Below, piece by piece: positions 2,643 to 44,308 of a stretch of 64,000 bases of DNA. The notes beneath the pieces are model-generated. The model searched no databases, was not told the DNA's origin, and saw nothing but the letters and a program-made list of their open reading frames with translations. The translations under genes were made by a program, and so were the position numbers. Numbering within the stretch: position 1 is the stretch's first letter; every line of letters starts with the position of its first letter. The stretch comes from Escherichia phage vB_VIPECOMC06: sequence record PQ416618.1, one strand, 5' to 3'.

Positions 2643-3097
2643 TGAGTAAGAAAAATAAAGTGAAAGAACTATCAGCCGGTATTATTTTCCTTACCGAAGA
2701 TAAAGAATTATTCATGGGGCGTGTAACTGGTTCTCGTCCTAAAGGTTCTTTAGCTCATCGGTGGGATATTCCTAAAGGTCGTGTCGAGCCCGGCGAATCT
2801 CCTATTGAAGCCGCTATTCGTGAATGTGAAGAAGAAACTGGGTTTACACAATATGACCCTGCCTTCCTGAAAGACCTAGGTGAACATCGTTACTCAGACA
2901 ATAAGAATATTCATCTGTTCCTATATACCATCCCTGTAGAGCACGAGCAATTCAGAAACAGTGTTTGTAATTCCTATCATACGTTCCCAGACGGACGACA
3001 GATTCCTGAATTTGATGCATTCGCTTTAATTAAACCTTCTCAATGGGAATATGTAATGGGCAAATCATTATATAAGGTGCTCACTACCCTCCTATAA
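2639..3097 (+). CDS. nudE: Nudix hydrolase
   Basis: Nudix box GRVEPGESPIEAAIRECEEETGF; sits immediately upstream of lysozyme as in T4 (e.1); ATGA overlap with upstream ORF. Confidence 0.8.
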   Translation: MMSKKNKVKELSAGIIFLTEDKELFMGRVTGSRPKGSLAHRWDIPKGRVEPGESPIEAAIRECEEETGFTQYDPAFLKDLGEHRYSDNKNIHLFLYTIPVEHEQFRNSVCNSYHTFPDGRQIPEFDAFALIKPSQWEYVMGKSLYKVLTTLL

Positions 3098-3104
3098 GTA
3101 ATAA

Positions 3105-3130
3105 ATACCTCCTATAAACGTGGGAGGTAT
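3105..3130 (+). promoter_or_regulatory. SD-sequestering hairpin with internal late-promoter-like box upstream of e
   Basis: ATACCTCC / GGAGGTAT inverted repeat; loop TATAAACG; right arm contains the e Shine-Dalgarno. Confidence 0.6.
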
Positions 3131-3131
3131 T

Positions 3132-3620
3132 ATGAATATATTTGAAATGCTTCGTAATGACGAAGGTCTTAGACTGACTTTATACAAAGACACTGAAGGC
3201 TTTTGGACGATTGGCATAGGTCATTTAGTAACAAAGAACCCGTCTTTAGCTGTAGCTAAAGCCGAACTTGACAGAATGATCGGGCGTAAATGCAACGGTA
3301 CAATTACCCTTGATGAGGCTGAAAAGTTATTTAATGAAGACGTTGATAAAGCTGTTCGCGGAATCTTGGGTAATGCTAAACTTAAACCGGTGTATGATTC
3401 TTTAGATGCAGTTCGTCGATGTGCATTGGTCAATATGGTCTTCCAAATGGGTGTAGCAGGCGTCGCCGGTTTTACTAATTCTCTTCGTATGCTTCAACAG
3501 AAACGTTGGGACGAAGCGGCAGTAAATCTAGCCCAATCTAAATGGTATCGTCAGACACCTAATCGCGCGAAACGCGTAATCTCAACATTTAAAACAGGAA
3601 CTTGGAAAGCGTATATATGA
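3132..3620 (+). CDS. e: endolysin (T4-type lysozyme)
   Basis: N-terminus [28 protein letters not shown] is the T4 lysozyme signature; ATG at 3132 (track start 3120 is a GTG inside the regulatory hairpin). Confidence 0.95.
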
Positions 3621-3898
3621 AAACATATAGTGAATTTTTATCAGAATCTATTCTTAACGAAGCTACTGACACATTTGCAACTAAGCTAGGTGCAGCTTTG
3701 GTTGAAGCTGAAAGTTTATTAGCACGTATTTCTGAACTTGCTAGTAAGATAGATACTCGCAAATTTGAGCGCACCAGTGATATCGTTAAGCTTGAAGCCT
3801 TGTTGCGTATGTGCGATAAACCAGAAGAAATCGCTAAGAACGGCTCGCTGATGAAACAACGTCTTGAAAAATATATTTCAGGCGCTTCAGAAAAATAG
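3617..3898 (+). CDS. internal-protein-like protein with capsid-targeting N-terminus
   Basis: Starts [10 protein letters not shown], resembling the T4 IP capsid targeting sequence MKTYQEFIAE; ATGA coupling to e. Confidence 0.5.
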
Positions 3899-3899
3899 T

Positions 3900-3953
3900 G
3901 TTTACTTCCTCCAAGGACTTTGATACTATACATTCATCAACTACTTGGAGGAA
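3900..3953 (+). promoter_or_regulatory. early promoter cassette with SD-pairing inverted repeat (denV)
   Basis: GTTTAC -35, TGATACTAT extended -10; TTCCTCCAAG (3906-3915) is the exact reverse complement of CTTGGAGGAA (3944-3953). Confidence 0.55.
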
Positions 3954-3956
3954 ATT

Positions 3957-4370
3957 ATGACTCGTATCAATTTAACACTTGTTTCTGAACTGACCGACCA
4001 ACATCTTATGGCGGAGTATCGTGAATTACCACGCGTATTTGGTGCAGTCCGTAAACATGTTCAAAACGGTAAACGTGTAAAGGATTTTAAAATCTCTCCA
4101 ACATTTATCTTAGGCACAGGACACGTAACATTCTTTTACGACAAACTCGAATTTTTACGTTTACGTCAAATCGAGCTAATCGCTGAATGCTTGAAACGTG
4201 GTTTCAAAATCAAGGACACGACTGTCCAGGATATTTCCGACATCCCTGCAGAATTTCGTAATAATTATGTCCCGTCCGAAGCGTCCATTGCGATAAGTCA
4301 AGCACGCTTAGACGAAAAAATTGCCCAACGTCCTACTTGGTACAAATACTATGGTAAATCAATTTACTAA
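3957..4370 (+). CDS. denV: endonuclease V (pyrimidine dimer DNA glycosylase)
   Basis: [32 protein letters not shown] matches the T4 endo V family; ATG at 3957 after GGAGG SD. Confidence 0.9.
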
Positions 4371-4401
4371 GGAAAAAGGTTGCGATGGTAAAGCTTAAAT
4401 T

Positions 4402-4431
4402 GTTTACGCTTAAGTATTAATATGGTATAAT
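4402..4431 (+). promoter_or_regulatory. early promoter upstream of internal protein genes
   Basis: GTTTAC, 18-bp spacer, TGGTATAAT. Confidence 0.55.
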
Positions 4432-4461
4432 TACTCTATCAAAACAAACAAGGAAACAAAA

Positions 4462-4776
4462 ATGAAAACGTATAAAGAATTTATTGCAGAATCCGCCAAC
4501 CAACGCGTTGAAGGTGGTTATATTTGGATTGAACAAGTTGAGCCACCGAGCCGCACTTCTACAGGTAAATGGAAAATTACTGTTGATGGTCCTGGTGGTA
4601 AACGTAGGACTCTTAAAGAAATTAATGGGTACTATGAAGAAGCTCTTTCGGATGCAGGAACTTACATGATGCAAATCATGATTAAAAACCCTGAAAACCG
4701 TTTTGCAGCTAAAGTCTTCCGTCGCATCGGTAATAAACTTTATGACGCATACTCTAAAAACTTCCCTAAAGAATAA
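4462..4776 (+). CDS. internal protein (injected, capsid-targeted)
   Basis: N-terminus MKTYKEFIAE (T4 IP capsid-targeting sequence with prohead-protease site). Confidence 0.7.
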   Translation: MKTYKEFIAESANQRVEGGYIWIEQVEPPSRTSTGKWKITVDGPGGKRRTLKEINGYYEEALSDAGTYMMQIMIKNPENRFAAKVFRRIGNKLYDAYSKNFPKE

Positions 4777-4802
4777 CATGAATTAAAACAATAGGAACAA
4801 AA

Positions 4803-5381
4803 ATGAAAACATATAAAGAATTTATCGCCGAGGCCTTTGCAGGAAAAGCTCAAGGCATTAATAAGGACGAGTGGACTTATCGTGGTGGAAACGGCTTTGA
4901 CCCTAAAACTGCTCCACTTGAACGATATCTAGCCACAAAGGCTTCCGACTTTAAAGCTTTCGCTTGGGAAGGACTTCGCTGGCGTAACGATCTAAATATT
5001 GAAGTTGACGGACTTAAATTTGCTCATATTGAAGATGTTGTTGCTAGTAACTTAGACGCAGCTTTTGTTAAAGCCGACAGTGATCTTCGACGCTGGAATT
5101 TAAAACTGTTCTCTAAACAAAAAGGACCGAAGTTTGTGCCTAAAGCTGGTAAATGGGTCATTGATAATAAATTAGCTAAGGCTGTCAACTACGCTGGTCT
5201 TGAATTCGCCAAGCACAAATCATCATGGAAAGGTCTTGATGCAATGGCTTTCCGTAAAGAATTTGCTGATGTTATGGCTAAAGGCGGCTTTAAGGCAGAA
5301 ATAGATACCTCTAAAGGTACGTTTAAAGACGCTAATGTTCAGTACGCTTACGCCGTTGCTAATGCAGCCCGTGGTAATTAA
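4803..5381 (+). CDS. internal protein (IPIII-like, 192 aa)
   Basis: N-terminus MKTYKEFIAEA; size similar to T4 IPIII. Confidence 0.7.
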   Translation: MKTYKEFIAEAFAGKAQGINKDEWTYRGGNGFDPKTAPLERYLATKASDFKAFAWEGLRWRNDLNIEVDGLKFAHIEDVVASNLDAAFVKADSDLRRWNLKLFSKQKGPKFVPKAGKWVIDNKLAKAVNYAGLEFAKHKSSWKGLDAMAFRKEFADVMAKGGFKAEIDTSKGTFKDANVQYAYAVANAARGN

Positions 5382-5402
5382 GGCCTATACTTAGGCCTAT
5401 TT
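5381..5402 (+). terminator. stem-loop, putative terminator after IPIII-like gene
   Basis: AGGCCTA-TACT-TAGGCCT perfect 7-bp stem followed by ATTT. Confidence 0.4.
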
Positions 5403-5419
5403 ACATTTAAAGGACACAT

Positions 5420-5749
5420 ATGAAAACATATCAAGAGTTTATCACTGAAGTTACATTATCTGCGGAACAGAAAGCTGCTATCGAAGAAGGTAAAAATCCC
5501 AAAGTAACATATAAAGTAAATAGTAAAGGCGTTTTTGATGGCTTGGTTCAAGACCCTGAATTGAAAAAAGCTCTTTCTAAAACTAATGCGTACTTTGCTC
5601 CTAAATTTAACACAGCCGGTGTACTTATTGGATTGGATGTATTCAACTCTAAAGGTGTTCTATCTAGTGCCTTTGGTTATGCCGCTAACAAAATTACCAA
5701 AGCCGCATGGGAATCCAATACCAAACAAGCTCAAAAGCCTAGAGTATAA
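5420..5749 (+). CDS. internal protein (109 aa)
   Basis: N-terminus MKTYQEFITE. Confidence 0.7.
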   Translation: MKTYQEFITEVTLSAEQKAAIEEGKNPKVTYKVNSKGVFDGLVQDPELKKALSKTNAYFAPKFNTAGVLIGLDVFNSKGVLSSAFGYAANKITKAAWESNTKQAQKPRV

Positions 5750-5922
5750 TTCTTGCCTAATAAAGGGAAACGCAACCTCTCCTTATGAACGTCGAGTCCT
5801 CTGAGTGATGTACCTTTTCCAACCTGTAATAAGGTCGAGCCCAAGTGCGGTAATGGGTTTACATAGCGAGTCGAAGGACCTAACATGTGCCACGGAATGG
5901 CCCCAACCTTAAGAGAAACTAA

Positions 5923-6462
5923 ATGAGAACATTTTTAACTGGACCTTATCTATCCCTGATGAATGCTTTTACACACCATTCTGATGCTAGAGTAGAAGAA
6001 ATTTGTAAGAACGGTTATGCCCCACCATTTGAAGACGTACTCAAGCAGTACTGTACACTTCGTTTAGATGGTGGCAGACAATCTGGTAAATCAACTGCAG
6101 TAACTAATTTTGCTGTTAATTGGCTGTATGACGGTGGAACGATTATTGTTCTTTCTAATACTTCAGCTTATGCTAAAATTTCTGCTGGCAACATTGAAAA
6201 AGAATTTTCTCGTTATTCTAGCGACGATATTCGATTCCGTTTATTTACTGATTCTGTTCGTAGTTTTATTGGCAATGAAGGTTCTAAATTCCGTGGATTA
6301 ACGCTTTCTCGTATTCTGTATATAATTGATGAGCCTATTAAAGCTCCTGATATGGATAAGATTTACAATGTCCATATTAAAACAGTCCAACACTGTTGCA
6401 AAAGCAAATATTGCATCAGCGGTAATGCTCGTCCTCAATTTTTTGTGATTGGAATGCAATGA
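5923..6462 (+). CDS. P-loop-containing hypothetical protein (179 aa)
   Basis: Walker-A-like GGRQSGKST; no family recognised. Confidence 0.45.
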   Translation: MRTFLTGPYLSLMNAFTHHSDARVEEICKNGYAPPFEDVLKQYCTLRLDGGRQSGKSTAVTNFAVNWLYDGGTIIVLSNTSAYAKISAGNIEKEFSRYSSDDIRFRLFTDSVRSFIGNEGSKFRGLTLSRILYIIDEPIKAPDMDKIYNVHIKTVQHCCKSKYCISGNARPQFFVIGMQ

Positions 6463-8359: not shown

Positions 8360-8902
8360 ATGAGAAAAGCACTACTCGCTGGTCTATTTGCTCTTTCATT
8401 ATCAGCACATAGCTCCGAGCATACTTTTAGTAATGTCCAACTCGATAACTTGAATTATGCTTATCAGTTTGGGGAACAGTTTTCTAAGGACGGAAAATTT
8501 AAAACGCATGAAAATATGCATAAGAAAGGACTTGGATACATAATGGCCGCAATACTATGGCAGGAATCATCTGCCGGTATTAATCTTAAAGATAAGAAAG
8601 GTCACCATGCGTATGGAATGTTCCAAAATTATCTACCAACAATGAGGGCAAGAATTAACCAGCTTGGTTATAATATGACTGATGCCCAAATTAAGAAAAT
8701 GCTATCTAAGCGGTCTAATTCAGCCAGATGGGCTTATATCGAATTTTCTTATTGGTTAAATATACATAACGGGGATATAAGAAAAGCTATATCCTCATAT
8801 AATGCGGGATGGAAGACGAGTGCTGGAAGTAAATATGCTTCTGAAGTCCTAGAAAAGGCTAATTACCTTAAATCAAACAAACTACTGGAAATAAAAGAAT
8901 GA
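8360..8902 (+). CDS. secreted protein, possible lytic transglycosylase-like
   Basis: Signal peptide MRKALLAGLFALSLSAHS; QESS...GxxQ motif region; family assignment tentative. Confidence 0.45.
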   Translation: MRKALLAGLFALSLSAHSSEHTFSNVQLDNLNYAYQFGEQFSKDGKFKTHENMHKKGLGYIMAAILWQESSAGINLKDKKGHHAYGMFQNYLPTMRARINQLGYNMTDAQIKKMLSKRSNSARWAYIEFSYWLNIHNGDIRKAISSYNAGWKTSAGSKYASEVLEKANYLKSNKLLEIKE

Positions 8903-9246
8903 CCAAAATGTTGGCTTTAATAGTTGGCTTGGTTTCATTTAACGCTCTTGCTAATACTACATATACTGATGTAACGGAGTATACAAACAGAACAGCGTCT
9001 GATTATTGTGGTAAAAGTCAAGAGTGTAAAGTAGATTTTTCACAAAAATTGTTATATGCGTATAAAGACGGAGAAAAAGATGGGGCGTCTAGTAGGTTCA
9101 AGGCGTCTACCTTAATTAAAAGATACTATAAAAAATGGCAAATATTAGAATGCTCGGTGGCGGAACCTAAAGATAAGGCAGCATGCAATTCTATGGTGGA
9201 CCGTCTAGTTGACTCTTATACTAGAGGACTTGCAGCAAGTGATTAA
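8899..9246 (+). CDS. secreted protein (115 aa)
   Basis: Signal peptide MTKMLALIVGLVSFNALA; Cys-containing mature part. Confidence 0.45.
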   Translation: MTKMLALIVGLVSFNALANTTYTDVTEYTNRTASDYCGKSQECKVDFSQKLLYAYKDGEKDGASSRFKASTLIKRYYKKWQILECSVAEPKDKAACNSMVDRLVDSYTRGLAASD

Positions 9247-9706
9247 AAACTATATCAAGGGCGATATTGTCGCCCTGTTTTCTAAAGGTAATAATATTGC
9301 TCATGGGTGTAATTGTTTTCATACAATGGGCGCTGGTGTGGCAGGACAATTAGCAAAGGCTTATCCAAAAATTCTAGAAGCCGATAAACTTCAAACCGAA
9401 TTCGGAGACGAGTCTAAACTCGGGACTTATTCGGTTTATGAAAAATATTTTAAGACCCATAAAGCTTATTGCTTTAATCTTTATACACAGTTTGAGCCTG
9501 GACCTAATTTTGAGTACTATGCTTTAATGAATTGTATAATAGAATTAAATGAATTCGGAAAGAATAAGATAACAAAGCCTGTAATTTATATGCCAAGAAT
9601 TGGTGCAGGTATCGGTGGCGGAAACTGGGATGTCATCGAAGAGATTTTAGATACGTATTCCACTAAACTAGAAATTGTGATTGTTGATTGGGAACCATTA
9701 TTATGA
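9209..9706 (+). CDS. macro-domain protein (ADP-ribose binding/processing)
   Basis: Macro-domain-like core NNIAHGCNCFHTMGAGVAGQLAKAYP and C-terminal GAGIGGGNW; start uncertain (overlaps upstream ORF by 38 nt). Confidence 0.55.
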   Translation: MTLILEDLQQVIKNYIKGDIVALFSKGNNIAHGCNCFHTMGAGVAGQLAKAYPKILEADKLQTEFGDESKLGTYSVYEKYFKTHKAYCFNLYTQFEPGPNFEYYALMNCIIELNEFGKNKITKPVIYMPRIGAGIGGGNWDVIEEILDTYSTKLEIVIVDWEPLL

Positions 9707-9915
9707 ATATACATTATCCACATCCATATGACCCAAAGAATAAGGCAGTAATTATTCGTCAATGGGAACGCATTTGTCGTACCAAATGTCCAATTAATAG
9801 TCCACACGATGTAGATAAAGACTACATCGGAACATTCGTTGAATATACCTTTATTGATAAGAAAGGCCGTAAACAACATGTAGAAGAATACTGCTTAAAG
9901 GTGACATGGCTATGA
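9703..9915 (+). CDS. hypothetical protein (~70 aa)
   Basis: ATGA overlap with macro-domain gene stop. Confidence 0.4.
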   Translation: MNIHYPHPYDPKNKAVIIRQWERICRTKCPINSPHDVDKDYIGTFVEYTFIDKKGRKQHVEEYCLKVTWL

Positions 9916-10097
9916 GTTTAAGCAAAGAACAAAAAGACAAACTCTTTTCTCTTATCCATGAAGTTATGGATAAAAATAGTGAATTGGAAAAAGTTTGTAA
10001 TGAATGCGGTCCTTTTAGTGCAAACGAGTACGAAGAACTTTCTAAAGAATTCGATAATAAAGAGCAAGAACTCATTGATTATATAAATTCCTTATGA
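9906..10097 (+). CDS. hypothetical protein (~61-63 aa)
   Basis: Overlapping start region with upstream stop (ATG at 9906 or 9912). Confidence 0.4.
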   Translation: MAMSLSKEQKDKLFSLIHEVMDKNSELEKVCNECGPFSANEYEELSKEFDNKEQELIDYINSL

Positions 10098-10291
10098 TTA
10101 CTCGCAAACAAAAGAACGAAATATTATTTTTAGTTAGTGAAATTGTTAGTTTAGAAAAGGATTTGTCTTTTGAAATATCTTCTGAATACGGAGATGCCGA
10201 AACATATTACGAATTAGTAAAATCTATCGATAAAGCTGAAAATGATTTAGAAACATATTTAGAAAATTTAACTAAGGACTCTTATGGCTAG
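10094..10291 (+). CDS. hypothetical acidic protein (65 aa)
   Basis: ATGA coupling. Confidence 0.4.
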   Translation: MITRKQKNEILFLVSEIVSLEKDLSFEISSEYGDAETYYELVKSIDKAENDLETYLENLTKDSYG

Positions 10292-10865
10292 TTTAATTTT
10301 TACATATGCCGCTATGAACGCTGGTAAATCTGCTTCATTACTTACTGCCGCACATAACTATAAAGAACGTGGCATGGGTGTATTAGTTCTTAAACCGGCT
10401 ATTGATACTCGCGATTCAAAAGGTGAAATAGTCTCTCGTATTGGTATTCGTCAGGACGCCAATATAATTACAAAAGACATGGATATCTTTGAATTCTATA
10501 AATGGGCTGCAGCACAAAAGGATATTCATTGTGTATTTGTTGACGAAGCTCAGTTTTTAACTACTGAAAAGGTGTATCAACTTAGTCGTATTGTTGACGT
10601 ATACAATGTGCCGGTAATGGCATATGGACTACGAACAGATTTTAAAGGTAATTTATTTGAAGGTTCTCAAGCATTAATGGCTATTGCCGATAAACTTGTT
10701 GAACTTAAAGGTGTCTGTCATTGCGGTAAAAAGGCCACAATGGTAGCTAGAGTCACGGAAGATGGACTTCCAATTACAGACGGCAGTCAAATTGAAATTG
10801 GTGATACTGATAGATATGTGTCATTATGCCGGAAGCATTGGAATGATTTGACAGGGTTGTTATAA
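10284..10865 (+). CDS. tk: thymidine kinase
   Basis: P-loop AAMNAGKSASLL, FVDEAQF, C-terminal Zn-binding CHCGKKAT...LCRKH; 193 aa as in T4 Tk. Confidence 0.9.
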   Translation: MASLIFTYAAMNAGKSASLLTAAHNYKERGMGVLVLKPAIDTRDSKGEIVSRIGIRQDANIITKDMDIFEFYKWAAAQKDIHCVFVDEAQFLTTEKVYQLSRIVDVYNVPVMAYGLRTDFKGNLFEGSQALMAIADKLVELKGVCHCGKKATMVARVTEDGLPITDGSQIEIGDTDRYVSLCRKHWNDLTGLL

Positions 10866-39174: not shown

Positions 39175-39214
39175 TATAATGTCATGGACGGTAAACTAAT
39201 TAAATGAGAGAAAT

Positions 39215-39850
39215 ATGAAAACTACTCCTATTACTATCGCTATTGACGCAATCATAAAACAAGCTTCTTCTTTGGCCGCTATGGCCAAAGTAATTAGTCA
39301 AAACCCTGCTCGTTATAATGCTATTCTAGAAACTCTTCGACGCCCAGGACTTAGTAATTATGAAAGCCGAGTAATTATTACAGGTGTTGGTAAGAATGCT
39401 AATATTGCAACTAAAGCTTCTGAGACATTTGCTTCACTCGGTATCCCGAGTATGTACTTGAACACAGGGCATTATTCTCATGGTGATGCAGGATTCATTG
39501 CGCCTAATGATGTGTTGATTCATATTAGTCGTTCTGGTAAAACTGAAGAAATGATAGGTGTGGCTAAGCATCTTAAAATGATTCGTCCGAACGTCAAACA
39601 GATTCTGTTGCATTGTAACCCTGACATTCCACAAGAATACGAAGCTCTTTTTGATTATACGTTCTGTACAGGCATCGCAGTAGAGGTTGATGAGAATTCT
39701 CTGGCTCCGACCATGTCCACTACATTGTTGTTAGCGCTTATCGATACGTTTGCTATCAACCTTTCGTCTGAACGTGGATTTACCTCTAATGACTTCCTTA
39801 AGTTCCACCCTGGCGGTGCACTAGGTGCCATGTTACGAGGCGAACAATGA
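39215..39850 (+). CDS. SIS-domain sugar-phosphate isomerase (KdsD/GutQ-like arabinose-5-phosphate isomerase, no CBS domains)
   Basis: SIS core VIITGVGKNANIATKASETFASLGIPSMYLNTGHYSHGDAGFIAPNDVLIHISRSGKTEEM parallels the KdsD N-terminal domain. Confidence 0.7.
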   Translation: MKTTPITIAIDAIIKQASSLAAMAKVISQNPARYNAILETLRRPGLSNYESRVIITGVGKNANIATKASETFASLGIPSMYLNTGHYSHGDAGFIAPNDVLIHISRSGKTEEMIGVAKHLKMIRPNVKQILLHCNPDIPQEYEALFDYTFCTGIAVEVDENSLAPTMSTTLLLALIDTFAINLSSERGFTSNDFLKFHPGGALGAMLRGEQ

Positions 39851-39990
39851 AAGCAATAACAATAGGACTTTTACTATTGATGCTTGTCATGACTATCTAC
39901 TGGAGCTTAACGGCTCCAGTATTGATTCCAACACTTGTAATCGGATGGATTATGATTGGACTACAAGCAAAGTATGAATGCTTTAACTAG
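39847..39990 (+). CDS. small hydrophobic peptide (47 aa)
   Basis: ATGA-coupled to the SIS gene; two hydrophobic segments; not in ORF track (<60 aa). Confidence 0.35.
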   Translation: MKAITIGLLLLMLVMTIYWSLTAPVLIPTLVIGWIMIGLQAKYECFN

Positions 39991-40003
39991 AATAGTGTAC
40001 AAT
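39979..40003 (+). promoter_or_regulatory. putative MotA-dependent middle promoter for the nucleotidyltransferase/kinase gene
   Basis: MotA-box TGCTTTA (39979-39985) with TACAAT 12 bp downstream. Confidence 0.4.
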
Positions 40004-40031
40004 ACACCTACTTACCAATGAGGACCACAAC

Positions 40032-41717
40032 ATGAAAAAAGCTGTTATTCTTGGTGCTGGATTGGCAACTCGTTTGTATCCAATAACGCATCATATTCCT
40101 AAGGTGCTTGTTAACTATAAACAAGACACTATTCTGAGCAATTTGTATACAATTTATTCTGACCTTGGCGCAGATGAAATTATTGTAGTAGTTCATTCAA
40201 AATTTGCTGAAACTGTTCGAGCTTATTGTGAGCAAGAAGGGTTCAATGTGACTATTCGTACAGTTGATGAAGCGTATGGTTCTGCTTATGCTCTTGCTAA
40301 ATTACACAAAGATTTAGACGGCCATAATGTAATTGTTAACTGGTGTGATATTATTCCTGATTTCGGTTCATGGTCTTGGAATGTTAACGCAATCTATGTT
40401 AAGGGTGACGAATGTCGATATAATTTCGACGGTGAAAATATCACTAACGTAGGTTCAACAGGTGGTAATGTTGTAGGAATTTATCAGTTCAAAGACTGGG
40501 AATTCTATATGGGTTCTACTGATGAGGAAATTCATGAATACTGCAAAGGACGTGATTTCGTAGAATTCCTTTACGGCAGCGCATTCAATAAATCAGAGCT
40601 TATGAATCTAATTGATTTAGGTGATATGCCTAAACTTGAAAAAGCTCATGAAGTTCGTGAACTTAATCGTAGTTTTAATGCAGTTGAAATTGGTGAAGAA
40701 ACTGTAACTAAATTCGCATTAACCGAACAGGGCCGAGCTCTTCAGAAAGATGAGATTTCATGGTATCTTAAAGTGAAATCAGATTCAGTTCCTCAGTTAG
40801 TTTCTGTTAATGAAAATAACTTTGAAATGGAACGCATTAAAGGTAAGCCGGCATTTGAATATATTAAATCCAAATCAAGTCTTGCTCGTCCACAAATTGT
40901 TGATGCAATTTTAGACGCACTGAAATTCAGCACAGACACTTATTTTGTAAGTCCTGAAACTGTTCGTCGTGATTTCACTAAAGAATTCTATACGAAAGTT
41001 ATTGATCGTTGTGAAAGTATTCAACCATTGATTGATTCATTTGGTAAAATCACACATGTAAACTACACTAAGATTGGGCGTCTGAAGCCAATGTTGAAAC
41101 AAGCTTTAGAACACCTTATTCGTTATCATAACCGTTCTCAGGGACAGTACTCTGTTATTCATGGTGACCCGAACTTCAGTAATACTATGATTACTGATAA
41201 CGGTGAAGTCAAGTTTATCGACCCTCGTGGATATTTTGGCGAAACCAAGATTTACGGGCCAAAATTGTATGATGAAGCTAAAGTGCTTTATGCTGTTTCA
41301 GGTTATGATGAATTCAACGCTAATCCGACCTGGGGGCAGTTTACTATTGATGAAACAACTTGTAATGTGACTATTAACATCAATCCATTAGTTTACAAAT
41401 ATGGAAAGATGAGTTCGTTTAACGAGTATCATCATTTGGCAGTGGCAATTATCTGGATTGCATTAGGTGGTTATTTCAAGAATAATCCACTTAAAGCGGT
41501 AGCCGCATATTATAAAGGTATGGAACTTCTGACTAAGCAATTACGTAACATGGGCCGTGTACTTCAGGACGGCTCTATTAGTTATGACGTAGCAGAACCT
41601 GTAACGGCTACTCTGATTACAAAAAATCCTGGTAAATGGGTACTAACTGATAAAGAAACTGGTGTTTCCTATCGTCCAATCGGTGGCGATATCACTCATC
41701 AATGGGAACGAATCTAA
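40032..41717 (+). CDS. bifunctional sugar-1-phosphate nucleotidyltransferase / anomeric sugar kinase (561 aa)
   Basis: N-terminal RmlA/MurU-type motif AVILGAGLATRLYP; C-terminal APH/choline-kinase-type catalytic loop VIHGDPNFSN and FIDPRGYFG. Confidence 0.7.
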   Translation: MKKAVILGAGLATRLYPITHHIPKVLVNYKQDTILSNLYTIYSDLGADEIIVVVHSKFAETVRAYCEQEGFNVTIRTVDEAYGSAYALAKLHKDLDGHNVIVNWCDIIPDFGSWSWNVNAIYVKGDECRYNFDGENITNVGSTGGNVVGIYQFKDWEFYMGSTDEEIHEYCKGRDFVEFLYGSAFNKSELMNLIDLGDMPKLEKAHEVRELNRSFNAVEIGEETVTKFALTEQGRALQKDEISWYLKVKSDSVPQLVSVNENNFEMERIKGKPAFEYIKSKSSLARPQIVDAILDALKFSTDTYFVSPETVRRDFTKEFYTKVIDRCESIQPLIDSFGKITHVNYTKIGRLKPMLKQALEHLIRYHNRSQGQYSVIHGDPNFSNTMITDNGEVKFIDPRGYFGETKIYGPKLYDEAKVLYAVSGYDEFNANPTWGQFTIDETTCNVTININPLVYKYGKMSSFNEYHHLAVAIIWIALGGYFKNNPLKAVAAYYKGMELLTKQLRNMGRVLQDGSISYDVAEPVTATLITKNPGKWVLTDKETGVSYRPIGGDITHQWERI

Positions 41718-42103
41718 TGCACCGTGTAAAAAACATGCTTAATCTTTGTTTTGATGTCGATGATTGTATAACAGAGTGGAATAACAATCGTGATTACGTG
41801 AACTTCAAACCAGACGTCGAAATGGTATCTGCCATTAATGCTCTGTATGATGCAGGGCATACCATAACGCTTTACACTGCTCGCGGTATGAAGTCAGTCG
41901 GTCCTGGTCGTATAGCAATCGACATTCTCCCAAGTCTGATTCAGAACTTGGCAAACATTGGCTTGAAGTACCATAATTTGCTAACACATAAACCAGTATA
42001 TGATTGGATTATCGACGACAAAGCTATGCGTCCTGACGAATTCAAAGCTCTTATGAATAAAGGCGAATTCGAAACATTTAAATCATATAAACCGAATCTA
42101 TAA
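41717..42103 (+). CDS. HAD-superfamily phosphatase (KdsC-like)
   Basis: HAD motif I FDVDDCITE, motif II TLYTARG, motif III K (THKPVYD), motif IV IIDDKA; start uncertain (41717 or 41735). Confidence 0.65.
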   Translation: MHRVKNMLNLCFDVDDCITEWNNNRDYVNFKPDVEMVSAINALYDAGHTITLYTARGMKSVGPGRIAIDILPSLIQNLANIGLKYHNLLTHKPVYDWIIDDKAMRPDEFKALMNKGEFETFKSYKPNL

Positions 42104-42157
42104 TAATTTAAGTAAGACCTGCAAAAACCATCGCAACAATTAACGCGAGATGCAAAA

Positions 42158-43318
42158 ATGAATACCTTTAAAATCGGAACGAATTTTGATTTAGCTCTTC
42201 TTGATAAAATCGTAGAGCTCAATAAAACTTATCCTAATAGCTTGATAAACGAAGTATACGGCTCTACAAGAGAAATGGCTTTTGTAGCAGCCAGACCTGA
42301 TTTTAGGCTTCCTGACGTTGACAAAAAGATGTTAGAAGATTACGTTAAACGTTGTAACGAATTAGGTATTTGCTTTAACTATACACTCAACACGATAAAT
42401 CCTGGTTCAAAAAGAGAACTAGTTGAGTGGAAGAAGAAAGCTATTCAGGATTATGTTCAGTATCTTTGGTCAATAGGCGTATGGCGTATTACTATCGCTA
42501 ACCCTGTTGTTATGGAAATTGTTCGTGAAGTCAATAAAGACATTGAGATTGAAGTTTCAACAATTCTACATGTCGATGCTGTAACTCAAATCAAATACTT
42601 GCATGACCAGTATAATATCAAAAAGGTCTGCTGTGGAATTCATAAGAACCGTTCAGTTTCTTTCCTGAAGCGTGCAGCAGAGTTTTGCAATAAGAACAAT
42701 ATAATATTTGAAGTTCTTGTAAATGAGTTCTGTTCTAATGCTGGTAAAGGGTATACAACACATTGTAGTTATCGTGACTCTTGCTATATTTTCCATAGCA
42801 CCGATGTTACAGTAGATGATGCCAAATCCTTAAATGGATATCCAATGCAACACTGCATTAAAGCTCGTGATACAGACCCATTTAACTGGTTGAGAACTCG
42901 TTTTGTTCGTCCTCAAGATTTGAAACTTTATAATGATATTGGTATCACTCAATTTAAAGTTTCTGGACGTACAGGTAGCACCGACTACATTTTGAAAGTT
43001 CTTGAAGCTTATGCTTCTGAAAAGTTTGAAGGTAATTTGTTAGAACTGTGGAAGCCTTTAGAGACTATTTTCACTCTTGAAAACGAAACTGAGTTTTCAC
43101 ATACGGTAAATATTGAAACCTCTTTGTTAGATGGCTTTTTAGAAAAAAGGTGGTTCAAACATCCAGATTTCGATTGTGCTAATGAAATCTGTGGGACGAC
43201 GTGTACATATTGTGAAAGATATTATAAACGTCAGTTATCTAAAAACGGGTTATCAGAAAATTCTATATCTATTATTGATATAACTAACTCTGATGACGCT
43301 TTGAGGTACCCAGAATGA
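42158..43318 (+). CDS. Cys-rich enzyme of unknown function (386 aa)
   Basis: Cys cluster EFCSNAGKGYTTHCSYRDSC and C-terminal CANEICGTTCTYC; weak resemblance to the TIM-barrel peptidase-U32 (RlhA/UbiU) pattern; part of the sugar-nucleotide cassette. Confidence 0.55.
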   Translation: MNTFKIGTNFDLALLDKIVELNKTYPNSLINEVYGSTREMAFVAARPDFRLPDVDKKMLEDYVKRCNELGICFNYTLNTINPGSKRELVEWKKKAIQDYVQYLWSIGVWRITIANPVVMEIVREVNKDIEIEVSTILHVDAVTQIKYLHDQYNIKKVCCGIHKNRSVSFLKRAAEFCNKNNIIFEVLVNEFCSNAGKGYTTHCSYRDSCYIFHSTDVTVDDAKSLNGYPMQHCIKARDTDPFNWLRTRFVRPQDLKLYNDIGITQFKVSGRTGSTDYILKVLEAYASEKFEGNLLELWKPLETIFTLENETEFSHTVNIETSLLDGFLEKRWFKHPDFDCANEICGTTCTYCERYYKRQLSKNGLSENSISIIDITNSDDALRYPE

Positions 43319-43458
43319 TTTCTAGAAAAACTTTTAACCACCAACTTAATGAAGAGATTTTGACTATTAAAATTAACAGCAACGAACAAATTCTTAAACA
43401 GGCCCATAAGGGCCTGTTTGAAACTAAAGCGGCTAAAGTGATTAAAGAACCTAACTAG
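43315..43458 (+). CDS. hypothetical small ORF (47 aa)
   Basis: ATGA-coupled to upstream gene; contains CAGGCCC-ATAA-GGGCCTG hairpin; may be noncoding. Confidence 0.2.
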   Translation: MISRKTFNHQLNEEILTIKINSNEQILKQAHKGLFETKAAKVIKEPN

Positions 43459-43591
43459 AATACTACGCTGATGCATTTCTTCATAGTGTTCTTGGAAGTA
43501 TCGATGCCGAAGCTTTACGTTATATCAACATCGCTAAGAAATTCAAATAAGCTTTATGAATTGAGTATATAATAACTGTATTGAGGTAAAC

Positions 43592-44308
43592 ATGGGAAAA
43601 CATAACACAATGAAATATATTAAAGCCGCAGATTTTCAATCCGCATTTAAAGCAGTCAATCGTGAAATTTTAGAAAACCCGGAATTCGTAACTGATTCTC
43701 GTATTGGACGTTGTAATGAAATTGGGTCTATGACAGTAGTTGTTGACACTCCATCTTCATTCAAAATGACCGATCCACGTATTAACCGCATCTCTTATGA
43801 ATATGCTGAAGATTTCTGGAAGTTTATGATTTCTGGTGGTACTGATGCAGAAGAAGCATTTAAGGCATATCCTAACGTTGCTAAATTTATTTCTAAACCT
43901 AAATCAGACGCTTTGCCTGCAAACTTCAACACTTTCTATGGTCCACGAATTGCGGCCCAGTTACCAGCTCTTTTAAAAGAACTTAAAGAGAAACCTAACT
44001 CCCGAAGAGTTGTGTTCCAAATTCTTGAAAGTTCAGATCAGGCTTTGCTTGATTCAGACGAAACACTTGAATATCCATGTACTGACTCAGTGACTTATTA
44101 TATTCGTGATGGTAAGCTTTATACCCACTGTCATATGCGTTCACAGAACTGTGCTGTTGTTATGCAGTTGGATTTTTATCTCCAAGGAAAATTACTTCAT
44201 TATATCGCTAAAGAATGTGGTGTAGAAGTTGGTGATTATACTCATACCATGGTAAGTGCCCATGTGTTTGAACGTGATTTTGATTATGTTAAAGGATTCC
44301 TTGACTAA
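43592..44308 (+). CDS. 42: thymidylate-synthase-fold pyrimidine hydroxymethylase (dCMP hydroxymethylase-like)
   Basis: TS-family pattern NSRR, catalytic Cys in YPCTDSVTYYIRDGK, MRSQN; position of gene 42 between 43 and uvsX; N-terminal half differs from T4 gp42 as recalled. Confidence 0.6.
   Translation: MGKHNTMKYIKAADFQSAFKAVNREILENPEFVTDSRIGRCNEIGSMTVVVDTPSSFKMTDPRINRISYEYAEDFWKFMISGGTDAEEAFKAYPNVAKFISKPKSDALPANFNTFYGPRIAAQLPALLKELKEKPNSRRVVFQILESSDQALLDSDETLEYPCTDSVTYYIRDGKLYTHCHMRSQNCAVVMQLDFYLQGKLLHYIAKECGVEVGDYTHTMVSAHVFERDFDYVKGFLD

Follow-up and report, generated by a model that had tools for sequence, protein, structure and literature searches.

A 64,000-nucleotide (nt) stretch of Escherichia phage vB_VIPECOMC06 (PQ416618.1; the window, meaning the whole stretch of DNA that was analysed) carries four genes whose products begin with the capsid-targeting sequence (CTS) of phage T4 internal proteins (Ips), here named ipA, ipB, ipC and ipD (ORF1 to ORF4, in this order). 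With a probability of about 0.85, we read this cassette as the e–denV–vs.8 Ip locus of a T-even phage, which would supply four pre-loaded and injected inhibitors and has been reshuffled by recombination through a segment made up of ribosome-binding site (RBS) and CTS. Direct observations are the tags and their locus, the homologies, and the junctions left by recombination. T-even phages have two known Ip loci, one of which is the site of the cassette. All genes but one fall into named Ip families, the exception being the fourth, which represents an unannotated family. Polymorphic CTS-tagged ip genes were described in 1994 and have come to be seen as injected anti-restriction proteins between 2007 and 2025. 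Our analysis supports this interpretation, which is already published, and the cassette is an ordinary example of the published system.

Four genes with a common tag and unrelated bodies

All four open reading frames (ORFs) start with ATG on the + strand, in the ORF listing as well as in the raw sequence, and their N-termini fit the pattern MKTY-x-EF-[LI]-x-E. A sequence-only reading of this DNA had already noted that four ORFs open with the T4 CTS. Its positions proved to be exact, and searching all six frames of the 64 kb with a loose CTS pattern revealed no CTS-type ORF beyond these four. When the sequence was shuffled 300 times by mononucleotides and 300 times by triplets, the strict pattern MKTY.EF[LI].E never came up (mean 0) and the loose one had a mean of 0.02, and it is confirmed that the tagged quartet far exceeds chance.

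In IPIII, the N-terminal 10 residues suffice for loading into the T4 prohead core; CTS residues 4 and 7 play a part in targeting, and CTS residues 8 and 10 in processing by gp21 (Mullaney & Black 1996, reviewed in PMC9026906). Y4, F7, L/I8 and E10 are present in all four ORFs, so that the positions for targeting and for gp21 processing are in place. Residues 8-10 read L-S-E, I-A-E, I-A-E and I-T-E (ORF1 to ORF4), and cleavage is predicted after Glu10, which would leave mature proteins of 9.2, 10.8, 20.2 and 10.6 kDa for ipA, ipB, ipC and ipD, respectively.

Behind the tag, the bodies are unrelated, as had been proposed from the sequence alone. The best pairwise BLASTP match between the tag-free bodies had an E-value of 0.004 and consisted of a 34-residue low-complexity stretch. 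phrog_3966 is a full-length match of ORF2 as well as of ORF4, with an hhalign probability between the two of 93.8% including the tag and 0.1% for the bodies only; the common match is driven by the tag, or phrog_3966 is heterogeneous. A deep homology of ipB and ipD was considered and rejected, because of this hhalign value without the CTS and because a phmmer search with ipD against 1.84 billion representative proteins misses Ip10. No recognisable domain was detected in the four bodies using Pfam, NCBIfam and PDB. Comparing T4 IPI and IPII with the window ORFs yielded essentially tag-only matches, and the sole match elsewhere (11 residues, E = 0.19) was insignificant. On the DNA level, the four ORF starts share a 36-nt direct-repeat family (D1), which comprises the RBS together with the CTS codons and has an identity of 69-92% between copies (Table 1).

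The cassette occupies a variable slot between e and vs.8

The source phage is a Mosigvirus of the RB69 group of Tevenvirinae. Two Mosigvirus members, Shigella phage phi25-307 and Escherichia phage S143_2, share 98% identity with the cassette region, and ~880 Tevenvirinae genomes gave a match. Synteny with phi25-307 continues over the remainder of the window at 93-98% and includes the arabinose-pathway genes beside the DNA polymerase gene. The flanking genes are those around ipIII-ipII-denV in T4, with nudE and e upstream and vs.8, vs.7 and vs.6 downstream, and synteny extends to T4 e…denV…vs.8 and to seven other T-even genomes.

Across eight phages, window included, the number of CTS-type genes between e and vs.8 varies from two to six. 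The order in the window is e–ipA–denV–ip10–ipIII–ipD, in contrast to e–ipIII–ipII–denV in T4, and the window is devoid of ipII. PP01 contains ip10 and ipIV and no denV; ime09 ipA, denV and ip4; HX01 a split ipA, denV and ipII; and RB69 127c, denV, 125c, ip10 and 123c. The set of S143_2 consists of ipA, denV, a 125c-type gene, ip10, ipIII and ipD, to which phi25-307 adds ipII. The lack of denV in the PP01 locus (8418-10500 of the extract; coordinates in other phages refer to the extracts compared) implies that denV behaves as a part of the variable cassette and not as a fixed neighbour. Of the earlier claim of four consecutive genes, the common cluster stands; strict adjacency does not, as denV sits between the first and the second gene, which the title of that reading, with its genes flanking denV, also conveys. 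The tagged member upstream of denV, which had also been pointed out before, is a real ORF with the RefSeq label 'internal head protein' in RB69 and phi25-307.

Table 1. Features of the e to vs.8 region of the window
Feature	Position	Strand	Characteristics
e (endolysin)	3132-3620	+	Pfam Phage_lysozyme; 83% amino acid identity to T4 e (BLASTP); upstream border of the locus
36-nt RBS+CTS repeat copies	3610-3645, 4455-4490, 4796-4831, 5413-5448	+	repeat search
ORF1 (ipA)	3617-3898	+	93 aa; CTS residues 8-10 L-S-E
denV (endonuclease V, pyrimidine-dimer glycosylase)	3957-4370	+	Pfam PF03013 Pyr_excise; 91% amino acid identity to T4 DenV
scar of a fifth ip gene, RB69ORF125c type, tag MKMYQEFI.EA	4371-4399	+	alignment with S143_2, phi25-307 and RB69
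sigma-70 / T4 early-type promoter-like site	4403-4431	+	TTTACG-17-TATAAT, extended TG; 5' of ip10
ORF2 (ipB)	4462-4776	+	104 aa; CTS MKTYKEFIAE
ORF3 (ipC)	4803-5381	+	192 aa; CTS MKTYKEFIAE
short G+C hairpin AGGCCTATACTTAGGCCT	5381-5398	+	terminator-like in scan; between ipIII and ipD
ORF4 (ipD)	5420-5749	+	109 aa; CTS MKTYQEFITE

The T4 ipIII–ipII–denV locus and the locus of the window are alike in the flanking genes, the 10-residue CTS, the RBS leader motif TATTTACATTTAAAGGAAACAT-ATG and the presence of ipIII and denV inside the cluster. They differ in that three of the four Ip bodies of the window are without a T4 counterpart. The locus of RB69, phi25-307, S143_2 and HX01 has near-identical ipA, ip10 and ipD, where present, in the same order around denV. 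Compared with this RB69-type locus, the 125c-type gene is reduced to a scar in the window and ipII is missing, whereas ipIII is present, unlike in RB69 and APCEc01.

The three genes that the window has in common with RB69 are intact, unlike their versions in the RB69 reference. There, ORF127c (2917-3198) contains a compensated -1/+1 frameshift that scrambles CTS residues 5-12, ORF124c/Ip10 (4001-4273) is frameshifted near the C-terminus (90 instead of 104 aa), and ORF123c (4342-4671) has Ala for Glu at cleavage position 10. These lesions are either sequencing errors of 2003 or the result of decay in laboratory passage. In HX01, the annotation of ipA (1811-2079) shows two short ORFs. One could argue from these lesions, from the split ipA of HX01 and from the scar of a fifth ip gene in the window that one or more of the four ORFs are decaying or non-functional tagged remnants. 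We regard this as very improbable, given that all four ORFs of the window are intact and preceded by properly spaced Shine-Dalgarno-like sequences and that identical copies of the proteins are encoded on many independent contigs (541, 218, 8 and 4).

A further ORF of 187 aa with the N-terminus MKTYAEFLTEA, RB69ORF149c type, is located in ime09 (12-575) upstream of e.8 and outside both classical Ip loci. It is annotated as 'hypothetical' or, in one source, as 'isopenicillin N synthase-like dioxygenase', has no counterpart in the window and is possibly another tagged protein.

Three genes belong to named internal protein families

Judged by homology, ipC is the orthologue of T4 IPIII/Ip3. The proteins are 92% identical over 192 residues (E = 2e-133), and ipC matches phrog_5341 over residues 1-192 of 192 (E = 2e-117). 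The predicted mature form has 182 aa and an isoelectric point (pI) of 9.6. DNA homologous to ipIII was found in 246 phage records. Using 4777-5425 as query, ipIII-like DNA with 87-90% identity occurs in about 89 Klebsiella phage records and in the Dhakavirus-type coliphages JS10 and WG01. Among the four genes compared, Ip3 had the most matching records, with search modes differing between genes.

ipB is assigned to Ip10: it is 96% identical to a PP01 gene annotated as 'Ip10 internal head protein' and shares a 90% identity cluster with Ip10 of phage Pol (CAA84455). Its predicted mature form has 94 aa and a pI of 9.6. The AlphaFold2 (AF2) model of ipB, with a predicted local distance difference test score (pLDDT) of 47, is unusable.

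ipA is of the RB69ORF127c type and matches phrog_3499, 'internal head protein' (E = 1e-46); the predicted mature form comprises 83 aa with a pI of 6.3. A 100% identical protein is encoded in many Mosigvirus and some Tequatrovirus genomes. Identity to Ip5 of T2, PP01 and AR1 is 48-51% over 84 residues (E = 1e-13 to 2e-17), and the similarity together with the different location classifies ipA as an Ip5 paralogue at a different locus and not as an orthologue. As the stop codon of e (TGA) overlaps the ATG of ipA in the sequence ATGA, ipA is probably co-transcribed with e. An equation of ipA/Ip5 with the McrBC inhibitor Bas37_0260 was tried and rejected: Bas37_0260 is 77 aa long, and it is the adjacent bas37_0261 (85 aa) that corresponds to Ip5 in size.

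ipD is an unannotated candidate internal protein

The fourth gene, ipD, is of the RB69ORF123c type. Its predicted mature form has 99 aa, a pI of 9.7 and a Lys content of 14%. The gene is present in 90 phage records, and all named cluster members that we examined are annotated as 'hypothetical' or 'uncharacterized'. Among the 1.84 billion representative proteins, the sole further homologue cluster is of the WG01/KIT01 type with 40% identity. The WG01-type relative starts with the tag MKTYQQFITE and retains nine of the ten CTS residues at this overall identity, which argues that the tag of ipD is under selection. Consecutive protein accessions suggest that in KIT01 the ipD relative and denV are adjacent. 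In the AF2 model (pLDDT 77.5), residues 1-10 are disordered and followed by a small alpha/beta body, for which no informative structural relatives were found with the predicted fold. ipD carries every sequence feature of an Ip, which makes it a candidate internal protein of an unannotated family, and it appears to lie outside the numbered Ip series.

The tag repeat serves as a portable recombination linker

Several junctions document the gain, loss and exchange of cassette members. Of the 125c-type gene, which is intact (84-86 aa) at this position in RB69, S143_2 and phi25-307, the 29-nt scar between denV and ip10 retains the RBS, 16 nt from the interior and the final codons plus stop. An identical scar is found in phages including HX01, SF, TH58 and ZQ3.

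A second junction becomes visible in the comparison with HX01. The ip10 leader is identical in both phages up to ATGAAAAC, where HX01 runs into ipII (2552-2945), so that the switch from the ip10 to the ipII body falls no later than ~10 nt into the CTS codons. The third one concerns ipD. In phi25-307, ipIII is followed by an ipII-type leader with ipII and then by ipD with a separate leader. The window and S143_2 differ from this: there, the ipII-type leader continues directly as the ipD body, with the joint inside the CTS codons. A crossover of two tag repeats has therefore deleted ipII. Likewise, the leader before ipIII in the window is near-identical to the leader before ipD in RB69. Based on these junction comparisons, the conserved ~36-nt RBS+CTS segment is best described as a portable recombination linker between non-homologous bodies.

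Divergence from T4 is mosaic: nucleotide identity amounts to 90.5% for ipIII over its full length and 93.7% for vs.6/grcA, in contrast to 69-78% for e, denV, vs.8 and vs.7. This pattern suggests fairly recent exchange of single genes between the Tequatrovirus and Mosigvirus lineages.

The cassette probably encodes injected inhibitors of host defence

For the function of the cassette we rely on published work as far as the CTS, injection and the targets of T4 Ip1-3 are concerned, and from these we infer packaging and targets of ipA, Ip10 and ipD. The 10-residue CTS would attach each product to the scaffolding core while the prohead assembles, and the prohead protease gp21 would then cleave after Glu10. 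The mature protein would remain in the head with the DNA and be ejected with the genome into the next host cell. There it would act before phage gene expression, as a stoichiometric inhibitor of a type IV nuclease that cuts DNA with sugar-modified cytosine. Between phages, the ip set would be reshuffled by homologous recombination across the ~36-nt RBS+CTS segment. Most likely, the Ip3 orthologue would block enzymes of the GmrS1/GmrSD2 type, and ipA, Ip10 and ipD most likely block other type IV enzymes or first-response defences. The description as a diversified cassette of injected effectors, already given by the sequence-only reading, thus gains support from the CTS residues, the T4 ipIII-ipII-denV locus and the Ip3 orthologue, with the extension to ORFs 1, 2 and 4 being a prediction.

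Several published findings are in line with this proposal. T-even internal proteins are diverse defence proteins that have the CTS alone in common (Rao & Black 2010, citing Repoila 1994). IPI* inhibits GmrSD of E. coli CT596 (PMC3012670), and T4 growth on E. coli ECOR17 needs IPIII, which works there without its CTS, too (PMC9391042). T4 Ip1, Ip2 and Ip3 each counteract one distinct GmrSD variant without cross-protection (Silas 2025, PMC12373910); Ip2 acts against GmrSD of ECOR21 and Ip3, in its T4 allele, against the type IV nuclease GmrS1/GmrSD2 of ECOR17 (PMC12373910). In addition, a CTS-tagged protein of phage Bas37 inhibits McrBC (preprint 10.1101/2025.11.20.689424).

Five points weigh against our proposal. 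First, ip4-10 showed no reproducible inhibition of 15 GmrSD clusters (PMC12373910), which leaves the target class unproven for Ip10, where the tested allele may differ from ORF2. This panel was challenged with T2, T4, T6 and T4 mutants and with no Mosigvirus (PMC12373910). Second, our literature search retrieved no virion proteomics or injection data on ipA, Ip10, ipD or phages of the RB69 group; presence in the virion, processing and ejection are established for T4 IPI-III only (PMC3012670, PMC9026906, PMC9391042). Third, genes for gp21 and the scaffold of the head were not apparent in the examined part of the window, which contains replication and nucleotide-metabolism genes, in the course of an analysis that included no search aimed at them; gp21 (the protease) and gp22 (the scaffolding core) are reported to be encoded by core genes of T4-related phages (PMC9026906). 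Fourth, ipA is near-neutral, unlike the basic T4 Ips. Fifth, prohead assembly takes place late, and no canonical late promoter TATAAATA is present in 3000-6000, only early-type promoter-like sites. The lack of a late promoter is not a distinguishing objection, because T4 ipIII and ipII are preceded by the same early-type-only arrangement.

The charge of the proteins bears on a different explanation, in which Ips are mainly structural polycations present in hundreds of copies, which neutralise DNA charge and help in packaging or ejection, with their diversity reflecting weak constraint. It would fit that all the mature proteins except that of ipA are basic (pI 9.6-9.7, ipD with its many lysines), like T4 IPI*, IPII* and IPIII*, and that T4 heads contain about 1000 internal protein molecules, with lysines contacting DNA phosphates according to solid-state nuclear magnetic resonance (PMC3012670). 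We nevertheless consider it improbable. All three T4 Ips have specific nuclease targets without cross-protection (PMC12373910), plasmid-encoded IPIII without CTS complements, so that it acts in the cytoplasm and not in the head (PMC9391042), and ipA is not basic. Moreover, ipA is 100% and Ip10 96% identical between Mosigvirus and Tequatrovirus, whereas weak constraint predicts otherwise. The polycation and the inhibitor role are not mutually exclusive.

A more serious competitor, which we still judge rather unlikely, keeps the injection of effectors and places their targets outside type IV restriction, in other immediate defences or in an Alt-like takeover of the host. The inactivity of ip4-10 on the 15 GmrSD clusters, bodies without recognisable Pfam, NCBIfam or PDB domains and a charge of ipA that is unlike that of known nuclease inhibitors would agree with such targets. 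Furthermore, the injected ADP-ribosyltransferase Alt, which is packaged via the prohead core too, functions differently and aids the evasion of Mokosh. On the other hand, every CTS-type Ip with a known target (Ip1, Ip2, Ip3 and Bas37_0260) inhibits a type IV enzyme, no Mosigvirus was among the phages used to challenge the GmrSD panel, and GmrSD diversity far exceeds the panel. For ipA, Ip10 and ipD, targets other than type IV enzymes may apply.

Arabinosylated DNA as a possible context of the cassette

Mosigvirus DNA contains arabinosylated cytosines and is cleaved by BrxU, a type IV enzyme of the GmrSD family (PMC13390438). At ~39200-44300, the window carries the Mosigvirus cytosine-arabinosylation cluster adjoining the DNA polymerase gene, recognised by 98% synteny with phi25-307. 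It consists of genes for a KpsF-like arabinose-5-phosphate isomerase and a GlmU-like nucleotidyltransferase together with a phosphoheptose-isomerase-like gene and a gene of the thymidylate-synthase family. Because of this cluster, the phage DNA is expected to bear arabinosylated cytosine, in contrast to glucosylated cytosine in T4. The occurrence of a T4-type Ip3 in such a phage raises the question of whether GmrS1/GmrSD2-type enzymes also attack arabinosylated DNA.

As a tentative suggestion, ipD, and possibly ipA and Ip10, might be injected inhibitors of nucleases that recognise arabinosyl-cytosine or of a defence class not yet tied to Ips. If this were true, such targets would explain why panels challenged with T2, T4 and T6 yielded none, and the natural cassette variants would be ready-made isogenic probes for target finding. 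Variants of this kind are RB69 and APCEc01 without ipIII, HX01 without ip10 and ipD, and phi25-307 with six genes.

Comparison with other polymorphic loci

The cassette resembles the polymorphic ipI locus (Repoila et al. 1994 via reviews; Ip1, Ip4-Ip10 and later ones), where non-homologous genes with the CTS alone in common occupy a fixed slot. Two members of the ipI series are related to genes of the locus studied here: Ip10 corresponds to ORF2, and Ip5 is the closest relative of ORF1. The ipI locus itself lies at a different chromosomal site (57B–tRNA region), outside the window. Bas37_0260, which is located at the ipI locus, is likewise a small CTS-tagged T-even protein that blocks type IV restriction (McrBC), set apart from ipA by gene size.

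Anti-CRISPR and anti-defence hotspots similarly hold small, mutually non-homologous inhibitor genes with fast turnover at a fixed locus, and the two T-even Ip loci have been likened to anti-CRISPR hotspots by Silas et al. (PMC12373910). Unlike in these hotspots, Ip products are pre-made and delivered in the virion, and the N-terminal tag doubles as a recombination handle.

Our findings leave the understanding of the Ip system unchanged, and their value is practical. They flag the RB69ORF123c-type ip family, which is 'hypothetical' in every record and named cluster member examined, and they document the RBS+CTS repeat at single-nucleotide resolution as the crossover point for gain, loss and replacement of cassette genes.

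Promoters and spacers of the locus

All four ORFs possess a Shine-Dalgarno-like sequence at the right spacing. The promoter-like site in front of ip10 was the top match of the promoter scan (10 of 12 positions) and is conserved in relatives, which makes it a putative promoter. An early-type promoter-like sequence, GTTTAC..TACTAT, is located at 3900-3929 just 5' of denV, with upstream sequence resembling the T4 denV leader. The hairpin between ipIII and ipD is followed by the T4 ipII-type leader TATTTACATTTAAAGGAcACAT, a sequence that matches the ipII slot of T4 and phi25-307.

Between ipD and vs.8 lies a non-coding spacer of 173 nt (5750-5922), and gaps of ~170-210 nt are likewise present in RB69, S143_2 and phi25-307. 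The spacer had no Rfam match and a less stable fold than shuffled sequences (z = +2.1). It harbours only an early-type promoter-like site, at 5858-5886.

The whole 64 kb contains only four TATAAATA sites. In T4, PP01 and ime09, two such canonical late promoters precede gene e. At 3085-3131, the late promoters before e are degenerate here and in all Mosigviruses checked (TATAAGTA / AATAAATA / TATAAACG), and the RBS-sequestering inverted repeat cctcc…gggagg before e is retained.

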